This document shows, piece by piece, positions 2,374-4,821 of a DNA stretch of 4,821 bases; the stretch's first letter is position 1; every line of letters begins with the position of its first letter. Origin of the DNA: a virus (lineage: Duplodnaviria > Heunggongvirae > Uroviricota > Caudoviricetes); IMG/VR virus record IMGVR_UViG_2531839474_000008; one strand, given 5' to 3'. The position numbers were made by a program, and so were the translations under genes. The notes under the pieces are model-generated. The model ran no database searches and was not told the DNA's origin. It was given only the letters and a program-made list of their open reading frames with translations.

Positions 2374-2488
2374 AGAAAGGAAACGACAGAGGCCAAAAAG
2401 CCCGTTTTCAGCACCTGTCGTTTCCTTTCTTTTCAGGGGGTGTTTTAAATAAAAACATTAAGTTACGAAGAAGAAGAACGGAAACGCC
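2374..2488. repeat. cosB: cosB gpNu1-binding elements: R1 (2374..2389) and R2 (2415..2430) as a perfect 16-bp inverted repeat, R3 at about 2473..2488, and an AT-rich putative IHF bend region between R3 and R2
   Basis: The plus strand at 2374..2389 is agaaaggaaacgacag and its exact reverse complement ctgtcgtttcctttct sits at 2415..2430. A third copy of the CGTTTCC core, gaagaacggaaacgcc, lies at 2473..2488. This arrangement matches lambda R1/R2/R3. The IHF site is not pinned to exact bases. Confidence 0.75.
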
Positions 2489-2526
2489 TTAAACCGGAAA
2501 ATTTTCATAAATAGCGAAAACCCGCG

Positions 2527-2538
2527 AGGTCGCCGCCC
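2527..2538 (-). other. cosN: cosN 12-nt cohesive-end sequence (GGGCGGCGACCT on the minus strand), flanked by the terminase nick sites
   Basis: The plus strand at 2527..2538 is aggtcgccgccc, the reverse complement of the lambda cohesive end GGGCGGCGACCT. It is flanked on the right by cgtaacctgtcgg, the reverse complement of the lambda right-end terminus. Confidence 0.8.
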
Positions 2539-2737
2539 CGTAACCTGTCGGATCGCCGGAAAGGACCCGCAAAATGATAATAATTATCATCTACATGTCA
2601 CAACGTGCATCTACGCCATCAAACCACGTCAAATAATCAATTATGACGCAGGTATCGTATTAATTGATCTGCGTCAACTTAACGTAAAAACAACTTCAGA
2701 CAATACAAATCAGCGACACTGAATACGGGGCAACCTC

Positions 2738-2932
2738 ATGTCAACGAAGAACAGAACCCGCAGAACAACAACCCGCAACATCCGCTTTCCTAACCAAATG
2801 ATTGAACAAATTAACATCGCTCTTGAGCAAAAAGGGTCCGGGAATTTCTCAGCCTGGGTCATTGAAGCCTGCCGTCGGAGACTAACGTCAGAAAAGAGAG
2901 CATATACATCAATCCAAAGTGATGATGAATAA
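2738..2932 (+). CDS. Small basic hypothetical protein, 64 aa, with an Arc/MetJ/CopG-like ribbon-helix-helix pattern; possibly YlcI/YnfO (DUF3950) family
   Basis: ATG at 2738 with a GGGG Shine-Dalgarno-like run about 9 nt upstream (acgGGGcaacctcATG) and a TAA stop. The protein MSTKNRTRRTTTRNIRFPNQMIEQINIALEQKGSGNFSAWVIEACRRRLTSEKRAYTSIQSDDE has a basic N-terminal arm, a beta-strand-like NIRF followed by P, a helix (NQMIEQINIALEQKG), a GSG turn and a second helix (NFSAWVIEACRRRL), parallel to the Arc FNLRWP...G.S... pattern. It uses three AGA codons and is more AT-rich than the terminase genes, as expected for a moron. The family name is tentative and from memory. Confidence 0.7.
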   Translation: MSTKNRTRRTTTRNIRFPNQMIEQINIALEQKGSGNFSAWVIEACRRRLTSEKRAYTSIQSDDE

Positions 2933-3199: not shown

Positions 3200-3291
3200 C
3201 TATATAGTTTTAATTTTCATCAATCCATTTAACTATCGTTTAATTGTTGTCACATAGGATTCTGCCGTTTTTAACAATGCAGGATAATAAG
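3200..3291 (+). promoter_or_regulatory. Putative bor promoter and ribosome-binding region
   Basis: AT-rich sequence directly upstream of bor. A strong Shine-Dalgarno AGGA sits 7-8 nt before the ATG (gcAGGAtaataagATG). There is a candidate -35-like TTGTCA at 3247..3252 with weak -10-like ttaaca/taacaa 17-19 nt downstream. Lambda bor is known to be expressed in lysogens from its own promoter, but the exact hexamers here are not convincing. Confidence 0.3.
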
Positions 3292-3585
3292 ATGAAAAAA
3301 ATGTTGTTTTCTGCCGCTCTGGCAATGCTTATTACAGGATGTGCTCAACAGACGTTTACTGTTGGAAACAAACCGACAGCAGTAACACCAAAGGAAACCA
3401 TCACCCATCACTTCTTCGTTTCGGGAATTGGACAGGAGAAAACTGTTGATGCAGCCAAAATTTGTGGCGGCGCAGAAAATGTTGTTAAAACAGAAACCCA
3501 GCAAACATTCGTAAATGGATTGCTCGGTTTTATTACTTTAGGCATTTATACTCCGCTGGAAGCGCGTGTGTATTGCTCACAATAA
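3292..3585 (+). CDS. bor: Bor outer-membrane lipoprotein (serum-resistance lysogenic-conversion protein), 97 aa
   Basis: MKKMLFSAALAMLITGCAQQTFTVGNKPTAVTPKETITHHFFVSGIGQEKTVDAAKICGGAENVVKTETQQTFVNGLLGFITLGIYTPLEARVYCSQ, with a lipoprotein signal peptide and LITGC lipobox. It is near-identical to lambda Bor as recalled, and lies on the strand opposite the late operon, directly after Rz, as in lambda. The ATG at 3292 with its AGGA Shine-Dalgarno is preferred over the TTG at 3244 used by the ORF track. Confidence 0.93.
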   Translation: MKKMLFSAALAMLITGCAQQTFTVGNKPTAVTPKETITHHFFVSGIGQEKTVDAAKICGGAENVVKTETQQTFVNGLLGFITLGIYTPLEARVYCSQ

Positions 3586-3616: not shown

Positions 3617-4078
3617 CTATCTGCACTGCTCATTAATATACTTCTGGGTTCCTTCCAGTTGTTTTTGCATAGTGATCAGCCTCTCTCTGAGGGTGAAATA
3701 ATCCCGTTCAGCGGTGTCTGCCAGTCGGGGGGAGGCTGCATTATCCACGCCGGAGGCGGTGGTGGCTTCACGCACTGACTGACAGACTGCTTTGATGTGC
3801 AACCGACGACGACCAGCGGCAACATCATCACGCAGAGCATCATTTTCAGCTTTCGCATCAGCTAACTCCTTCGTGTATTTTGCATCGAGCGCAGCAACAT
3901 CACGCTGACGCATCTGCATGTCAGTAATTGCCGCGTTCGCCAGCTTCAGTTCTCTGGCATTTTTGTCGCGCTGGGCTTTGTAGGTAATGGCGTTATCACG
4001 GTAATGATTAACAGCCCATGACAGGCAGACGATGATGCAGATAACCAGAGCGGAGATAATCGCGGTTACTCTGTTCAT
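3617..4078 (-). CDS. Rz: Rz inner-membrane spanin (i-spanin), 153 aa
   Basis: [153 protein letters not shown] has an N-terminal signal-anchor transmembrane segment and a coiled-coil periplasmic domain. It is near-identical to lambda Rz as recalled. The ATG at 4078..4076 overlaps the endolysin TGA stop (ATGA) and follows a GGGG Shine-Dalgarno-like run; the ORF-track start at 4090 is an in-frame GTG four codons upstream. Confidence 0.95.
3676..3858 (-). CDS. Rz1: Rz1 outer-membrane lipoprotein spanin (o-spanin), 60 aa, embedded in the +1 frame of Rz
   Basis: [60 protein letters not shown] has a lipoprotein signal with a VVGC lipobox and a proline-rich mature region. It matches lambda Rz1 as recalled and lies wholly inside the Rz coding sequence in a different frame. 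Confidence 0.9.
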
Positions 4079-4578
4079 TGCTGACCCCACAAACAGATTT
4101 CACGCTCAATCTCACGACGAGTCATGAGACCTTTCCATTGCTTACCGCCAGCATATGTCCAGCGACGTAGCTGATCACATGCGCCTTTGATATCGCCCTG
4201 GTTTATTTTGCGAAGAAGCGTCGATGTTCTGAAATTGCCAGCACCCACGTTGTAAACGAATGAGTAAAGAGCGCCGCGCATTGTTTCCGGTATATCGACT
4301 TTGATGTACGGGTTAATTTGTCTGGCGACCGTGGCAAGGTCTTTATTCAGGAGGGCTTTGCATTCTGCTTTGGTATACGTTTTACCGAGCATGATGTCTT
4401 TTCCTGTATGCCCGTGACATACAGTCCATACACCAACAATATCTTTGTATGGTATGTAGCTGACACCTTCCAGACCATCGTTACCACTCGGTCCAGTGAT
4501 TAACACAGATGCTATAGCAATAGCCCCGCCACTTATCGCCGCTATTACGCTATTTCGTAGTGCCGGTGACATTGCCAT
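4075..4578 (-). CDS. R: SAR (signal-arrest-release) endolysin, T4-lysozyme-like glycoside hydrolase (GH24 type), 167 aa
   Basis: [59 protein letters not shown]... has an N-terminal Gly/Ala/Ser-rich weakly hydrophobic segment (residues about 9-30) typical of SAR domains. The catalytic triad spacing E37-x8-D46-x5-T52 matches T4 lysozyme (E11/D20/T26) and phage 21 R. A GAGGA Shine-Dalgarno lies 8 nt upstream of the first ATG. The start overlaps the holin 3' end by 29 nt. It resembles the 21-like and DLP12 RrrD lysozymes as recalled. Confidence 0.93.
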
Positions 4579-4753
4579 TCAATCTGTCCTCGCGCTCTTT
4601 GCGCTTGTAGTACCAGTTGATGCCAAATGTGCCGACAGTACAAAGAATACCAATAATGACAGCCCAGTCATTCAGGGAGAGAATGCCACCCATCGCAGTC
4701 AGTCCTCCGAAGCTGTAACTGAACCATTCTCTGATTTTGTCCATACGGTACAT
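4550..4753 (-). CDS. S: Class II holin with two transmembrane domains, pinholin-like, carrying a dual-start motif (M1 and M4)
   Basis: The 67-aa protein [67 protein letters not shown] has two predicted transmembrane segments (a Gly/Ala/Ser-rich first segment, [17 protein letters not shown], and a second, [20 protein letters not shown]) and a charged C-terminus. It sits directly upstream of, and overlaps, the endolysin gene. The M-Y-R-M-D-K N-terminus resembles the phage 21 S dual start M-K-S-M-D-K. The protein itself is not one I recognise by sequence. Confidence 0.85.
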
Positions 4754-4821
4754 GCTCTACCCATTCATTGAGGGGATTTGCTCTATGTGGATTTGCCCCT
4801 ATATTTCCAGACACCTGTTAT

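Follow-up and report, generated by a model that had tools for sequence, protein, structure and literature searches.

The window, a 4,821-nt stretch of viral DNA, comes from a lambda-like prophage and represents its late-region junction. Its features are listed in Table 1. The holin open reading frame lies on the minus strand and runs from an ATG at 4753–4751 to a stop codon at 4552–4550. The endolysin, Rz, Rz1, cos, Nu1, and the visible part of terminase A are all intact. The Rz reading frame can be extended upstream to a GTG at 4090 according to the list of open reading frames.

Table 1. Positions of the lysis genes and neighboring features in the window.
Feature	Position	Strand	Remarks
Holin gene, long form, 67 aa (MYRMDK...)	4550..4753	-	PF16080, phrog_20 holin; start at Met1
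Holin gene, short form, 64 aa (MDKIRE...)	4550..4744	-	Start at Met4; aligns with the MDK/MEK starts of the family and with Met4 of S21
SAR endolysin, GH24 lysozyme, R21 type, 167 aa	4075..4578	-	SAR domain at about residues 9–28, catalytic Glu37
i-spanin Rz	3617..4078	-	ATG overlaps the endolysin stop as ATGA
o-spanin Rz1 lipoprotein	3676..3858	-	Inside Rz, in another reading frame
bor	3289–3585	+	
DUF3950 open reading frame	2738–2932	+	Between bor and cos; ordinary lambda-like context
Lambda-type cos, […GGGCGGCGACCTCGCG…]	about 2480–2560	-	Upstream of Nu1; ordinary lambda-like context
Lambda-type Nu1	2349–1804	-	Terminase A beyond
C-run/G-run pair CCCCT-caatga-A[T]GGG	4760..4775	-	Just upstream of the first holin ATG; G-run is a Shine-Dalgarno-like tract
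IS3-family insertion sequence, last ~35 nt	4787..4821	-	Context, outside the lysis cassette

From about position 4532 downward, which corresponds to endolysin codon 16 and beyond, the DNA was 99.4% identical to R, Rz, and Rz1 of phage 21. A mosaic joint lies at this position, inside the SAR-domain codons, with the holin and the first 15 or so endolysin codons of the PS119 type above it and the phage 21 type below. Among related viral loci, the endolysin body behind the same holin was of the R21 type in some and of the PS119 type in others, which suggests that the conserved SAR region often recombines. Judged by these sequence matches, the cassette is a natural hybrid with the holin standing at the position that S21 has in phage 21. 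With R, Rz, and Rz1 of phage 21 behind it in nearly identical form, the holin naturally takes the place of S21 before R21.

An earlier note on this DNA had placed a holin at 4550–4753, and the open reading frame proved to be real. Its product showed 100% identity to gp13, which the Salmonella P22-like phages PS119, ST104, SE1, and SPN9CC carry as their annotated holin. Emek and about 30 further phage records have the same protein, in several cases under the label "class II holin". The product matched PF16080 (Phage_holin_2_3, the HP1 holin family) with 75.1 bits against a cut-off of 28.8 (E 4.4e-21, residues 5–53), and phrog_20 "holin" with an E-value of 3.5e-25; no NCBIfam model matched either the window holin or S21. 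As is typical of PF16080, the gene encodes a small membrane protein (67 aa) and is located directly upstream of a GH24 lysozyme gene, which is followed by Rz and Rz1. The protein is almost certainly a holin, and it is very probably a two-TMD member of the HP1 family.

The PS119 record (AJ011581) contains the annotated holin, the 29-nt overlap, and the endolysin N-terminus MAMSPALRN, all as in the window. The two cassettes differ from about endolysin codon 16 on: the rest of the endolysin and Rz/Rz1 are of the PS119 type in PS119, whereas those of the window are of the phage 21 type. The upstream insertion sequence and a G-to-T change in the leader are found in the window alone. The holin gene with its junction was present in 82 of 5,426 complete E. 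coli genomes. The gene is already known, and the holin reading of the earlier note is correct but not new, because the protein is identical to long-deposited annotated holins and the type member of the family has been published as a pinholin. Literature searches on the PS119, ST104, SE1, and SPN9CC holins found no experiment on the window holin or its close relatives, only the HP1 paper and reviews in which the SPN9CC endolysin is mentioned.

The membrane topology of the holin was investigated by hydropathy (Kyte-Doolittle scale) and by structure modeling. Only two uncharged hydrophobic segments were found, W10–L27 and W30–Y49, fewer than the three or more TMDs that the earlier note had named as speaking against its reading. 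The note had also described the first segment as rich in Gly, Ala, and Ser, and the composition agreed with this; the letters that it quoted are residues 11–27. TMD1 contained 50% Gly/Ala/Ser/Thr and was weakly hydrophobic, with a Kyte-Doolittle mean of 1.02, compared with 1.34 for TMD2. The values for S21 were 0.52 for TMD1 (55% Gly/Ala/Ser/Thr) and 1.50 for TMD2. In the alignment of 46 diverse family members, TMD1 had the lower hydrophobicity of the two in 38. An AlphaFold2 model based on this 46-member alignment showed helices at residues 3–21 and 27–60, with a moderate pLDDT of 68.6 that was highest over the second helix. Two helices and a charged C-terminus (KRKEREDR) are the features of a class II holin. 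From the positive-inside rule, we infer an N-in/C-in orientation. The stretch ahead of TMD1 (MDKIRE) carries four charged residues, compared with two in S21-68 (MDK).

The relationship to S21 was investigated with family profiles. The holin scored 19.5 bits against PF04971 (Phage_holin_2_1, P21 holin S), below the cut-off of 26, and only residues 25–54 were covered. A profile of 46 family members was aligned with S21-71 end to end over 59 columns, with an hhalign probability of 96.5% and an E-value of 8e-10. In this alignment MY-RMDK was placed on MK-SMDK, and T42, N46, Y48, K50, and E53 of the holin were placed on T51, N55, Y57, K59, and E62 of S21; T42 and N46 are invariant in the family. 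By the sub-threshold PF04971 score together with the profile–profile match, the holin is a distant homologue of S21 outside PF04971.

S21 of phage 21, which belongs to PF04971 and comprises the S21-68 pinholin and the S21-71 antiholin, resembles the window holin in size, in having two TMDs with a Gly/Ala/Ser/Thr-rich TMD1, and in the charged C-terminus. Both have a dual start of the form M-x-x-M-D-K with one extra positive charge, and both stand at the same position ahead of essentially identical R21, Rz, and Rz1. The differences are that the two proteins are only about 27% identical when aligned by profile, that the periplasmic loop has 2 residues in the window holin and about 7 in S21, that the N-terminus of the window holin has an additional Arg8/Glu9, and that the holin stop and endolysin start overlap by 29 nt in the window and by 1 nt in phage 21. 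S21 from which TMD1 has been deleted is still lethal and triggers early. Lambda S (S105/S107) shares the dual-start principle, with a positive residue only in the longer product. In contrast, it belongs to class I, has three TMDs, forms micron-scale holes, and works with a soluble endolysin, and it has no sequence relationship to the window holin.

The type member of PF16080 is Hol of Haemophilus phage HP1 (TCDB 1.E.7). It shares with the window holin the Pfam family and an overlapping SAR lysozyme gene downstream. Overexpression of HP1 Hol kills E. coli without lysis and without release of β-galactosidase, and deletion of hol blocks the release of HP1 phage; the partner is a SAR lysozyme, and the authors concluded that HP1 Hol is a pinholin (PMC7312051). 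HP1 Hol differs from the window holin in having 78 aa and a single start, and its topology on overexpression was an unusual C-out one (PMC7312051). The lack of a dual start and the C-out topology of HP1 Hol suggested that the members of the family need not all behave alike. Complementation or leakage assays of hole size have been carried out on HP1 Hol and on S21.

A pinholin serves only a SAR endolysin, while a large-hole holin serves either kind. The nature of the partner enzyme was therefore of interest, and the earlier note's expectation of a SAR endolysin downstream was borne out. The window endolysin has a GH24 domain (PF00959, E 1.4e-45) after an uncharged, Gly/Ala-rich N-terminal stretch of at least 20 residues (about 9–28), which lies ahead of Glu37. 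It matched PDB 3HDE, the phage 21 lysozyme structure, with an E-value of 5e-108, and 3HDF and 4ZPU with E-values of about 1e-107. The endolysin of SPN9CC, the holin of which is identical to that of the window, has been reported with a SAR domain (PMC8532960).

The out-of-frame overlap of 29 nt (4550–4578) described in the earlier note applies if the endolysin starts at the ATG at 4578; with the second ATG, at 4572, the overlap is 23 nt. The ATG at 4578 has GAGGA 8 nt upstream and is used in the GenBank record of PS119 (167 aa), and the ATG at 4572 is used by RefSeq in E. coli 55989 and gives 165 aa, as in R21. The two ATGs of the endolysin, 6 nt apart (M-A-M), were considered as a second dual start; this was rejected, as relatives vary at this place (MAI, MSL, MSM). 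Coupled translation of holin and endolysin, suggested in the earlier note, might at most be inferred from the overlap; the endolysin has its own GAGGA, and among relatives the spacing of the two genes ranges from −29 to +7 nt.

Prophage relatives were collected by scanning one genome per species, which yielded 72 prophage loci; viral contigs had given near-identical loci only. A GH24 lysozyme gene adjoined the holin gene in 61 of the 67 loci that have a downstream open reading frame. All 61 of these partners, from prophages of many genera, had a SAR-type N-terminus, with 15 or more uncharged, moderately hydrophobic residues ahead of the catalytic Glu; P22 gp19, a soluble enzyme used as control, scored negative. 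Complete viral loci with near-identical holins (97–100%) gave the same picture, with a SAR lysozyme and the −29 overlap in 73 of 73, although these are non-independent observations. A family member beside a soluble GH24 lysozyme was found in none of the 61 prophage loci and in none of the 73 viral loci. Six loci had no GH24 neighbor: two were disrupted (L194, L207), two had a spanin-like gene next (L223, L225), one had another open reading frame (L224), and in the last (L233) a soluble-type amidase adjoined, but its holin was a marginal match over residues 34–52 only.

The N-terminus of the holin has two in-frame ATGs, at 4753 (Met1) and at 4744–4742 (Met4), with Arg3 between them, in agreement with the earlier note. 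In 19 close homologues (60–99% identity), M1, R3, M4, and K6 were invariant, and residue 2 was Y, Q, or H. Start codons in the prophage set were counted over distinct intact holins. In the nearest clade, 27 of 28 keep two ATGs 1–3 codons apart with Arg or Lys between (MYRM, MQRM, MRM, MIRM, MKM), at identities down to about 45%. These holins came from Citrobacter, Raoultella, Yersinia, Serratia, Providencia, Morganella, Erwinia, Izhakiella, Limnobaculum, Arsenophonus, and Vibrio. A single start was found in one close relative (L171) and in remote members such as those of Acinetobacter. By our estimate, no more than a few percent of genes should have an in-frame ATG at −2 or −3 codons by chance. 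Judged from this conservation, the dual ATG is more than a chance occurrence. Most members of the wider family begin at the MDK/MEK equivalent to Met4, which suggested that Met4 is the genuine, ancestral start and that Met1 with its basic residue was added to it and has been maintained by selection.

The sister clade (Pantoea, Pseudescherichia, Atlantibacter, Kalamiella; loci L200–L227) was different in charge. Two ATGs, 2–4 codons apart, were kept in 20 of 22 holins, and the extension was acidic or neutral (Asp or Asn; MSIDMSK, MSNMSK, MFNMSK), with no basic residue. Such an extension is at odds with the classical rule, under which the antiholin owes its character to an added positive charge.

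The region upstream of the holin gene was also investigated. The 3′ end of the IS3-family element lies 33 nt upstream of the first holin ATG; its terminal repeat is one that we take to be like that of IS2, and its transposase reads toward the holin. The element separates the late-promoter region from the lysis cassette. The junction of insertion sequence and holin was found in none of the 5,426 complete E. coli genomes searched. Position 4763 (minus strand) is T in the window and G in 80 of 80 viral loci and in E. coli 55989. This G-to-T change is located in the G-run, which is the likely ribosome-binding tract and also the 3′ arm of a putative hairpin. The holin coding sequence itself is intact. 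The insertion sequence 33 nt upstream and the change in the ribosome-binding tract have probably altered the expression of this copy, and the gene may be poorly expressed or silent.

The canonical leader allele, CCCCT-caatga-AGGGG, forms a 5-bp hairpin, and similarly placed C-run/G-run pairs were found in relatives and in phage 21. Such structures are said to tune the choice of start in lambda S and S21. In the MFE folds of most relatives the G-rich tract was held in a hairpin, and the G-to-T change at 4763 weakened the local fold from −10.5 kcal/mol (canonical) to −4.7 kcal/mol. A hairpin sequestering the Shine-Dalgarno tract is nevertheless not claimed: visual inspection suggested conservation and compensating stems, but the shuffle control was not significant. 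When only the 5′ flank was shuffled, pairing of the G-rich tract was almost the same (mean 0.53 vs. 0.50), with p ≤ 0.05 in 5 of 41 sequences. Single-sequence z-scores were only −1 to −2.2. The hairpin is unproven and cannot be told apart from an effect of base composition, as the G-rich tract pairs almost equally with a shuffled C-rich flank.

The pathway put forward in the earlier note, a pinholin acting with a SAR endolysin, agrees with the family membership, the full-length homology to S21, the conserved dual-start motif, and the invariable SAR partners, and all predictions that the note made at the level of sequence were confirmed. The full mechanism, in which an HP1-family class II holin with a pinholin/antiholin dual start is paired with a SAR endolysin, is considered probable. 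The pinholin and dual-start reading is well supported by homology and context. By homology, translation from Met4 would give the 64-aa active holin, and translation from Met1 would give the 67-aa form. Both termini of this two-helix holin would lie in the cytoplasm. In the long form, Arg3 would keep the first helix, which is weakly hydrophobic, within the membrane, and this form would thereby act as an antiholin and delay triggering. At a critical concentration the first helix would leave the bilayer. The second helices, with the conserved G35, G41, T42, and N46, would then assemble into small holes, and the membrane potential would collapse. Depolarization would release the membrane-tethered SAR endolysin, which would refold, become active, and degrade the wall. 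Rz and Rz1 would then disrupt the outer membrane.

Three other explanations were weighed against this mechanism. If the protein were a class II holin of the canonical large-hole kind, with a SAR endolysin as its partner by happenstance, it would release soluble endolysins too. Two-TMD holins are not all pinholins, and class II topology alone is no proof of one. SAR endolysins are also served by large-hole holins, for example Lyz of phage P1 by LydA. In addition, TMD1 of the window holin is more hydrophobic than that of S21 (1.02 vs. 0.52), and the four charges in MDKIRE would have to cross the membrane with the translocated N-terminus. The SAR endolysin gp61 of phage N4 was complemented by either kind of holin (bioRxiv 10.1101/2025.11.12.688109). 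However, the absence of any soluble GH24 neighbor from the 61 prophage and 73 viral loci would be unexpected in such mosaic cassettes, the homology to S21 is full-length and family-wide, and HP1 Hol did not release β-galactosidase (PMC7312051). A large-hole holin is thus considered quite improbable. It is also unlikely, though a little less so, that only Met1 or only Met4 is used, in which case the other Met would be an ordinary residue or part of an untranslated leader and no antiholin would be made. The studied family member, HP1 hol, has no dual start, one close relative and the remote ones have a single start, and the MSIDMSK type of the neighboring clade has two ATGs without a positive charge between them. 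Gene callers also differ, with models of both 64 aa and 67 aa. Against a single start, M1, R3, and M4 are constant around a variable residue 2, the motif is kept in 27 of 28 holins of the clade, and it aligns with the experimentally established dual start of S21; the wider family mostly begins at the Met4 equivalent, which speaks for Met4 as a start.

The third explanation concerns this copy rather than the family. The gene could be a silent remnant of a decaying prophage, cut off from its late promoter by the insertion sequence, with a mutated ribosome-binding tract and no current function. The closeness of the IS3-family end to the ATG is consistent with this, as are the G-to-T change, seen in 0 of 80 viral loci, and the junction, seen in 0 of 5,426 complete E. 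coli genomes. Yet the open reading frame is intact and its product is identical to that of plaque-forming phages, and the rest of the lysis cassette, cos, Nu1, and what the window shows of A are intact as well. The insertion sequence reads in the same direction as the holin, and Q-modified polymerase can read through insertions, as is well established. A silent remnant is accordingly regarded as rather doubtful, while being the most plausible of the three. The dual-start pinholin with its SAR endolysin partner remains the preferred reading.

The results suggested that the correct annotation of the gene is an HP1-family class II holin, probably a pinholin/antipinholin with a dual start, and that of its partner a SAR endolysin. 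Beyond correct annotation, the locus is of little importance. The family-wide survey provides comparative support for HP1-family holins as dedicated partners of SAR endolysins, and the dual start appears as a conserved trait of the enterobacterial branch. Because the dual start and the SAR partnership are conserved, gp13 of PS119/ST104 would be a convenient second model beside S21 for studying how N-terminal charge controls pinholin triggering. A bolder interpretation, to which only a small probability is given, is that PS119-type holins form a second lineage of dual-start pinholins in enterobacterial phages. Their antiholin logic would perhaps be unlike that of S21, given the four charges ahead of TMD1 and the acidic or neutral extension of the sister clade, and lysis in this copy could have been re-tuned or silenced by the insertion sequence and the change in the ribosome-binding tract, for example toward prophage domestication.

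A longer variant of the holin, with 89–92 aa, was observed in HK225 (92 aa; L236:1054–1332) and in proteins P0042/P0047. It has the same second TMD and C-terminus. At the N-terminus it has an extra Gly/Thr-rich segment and a dual start of its own, MTRM. The gene is followed by a SAR lysozyme gene, with an overlap of 29 nt.
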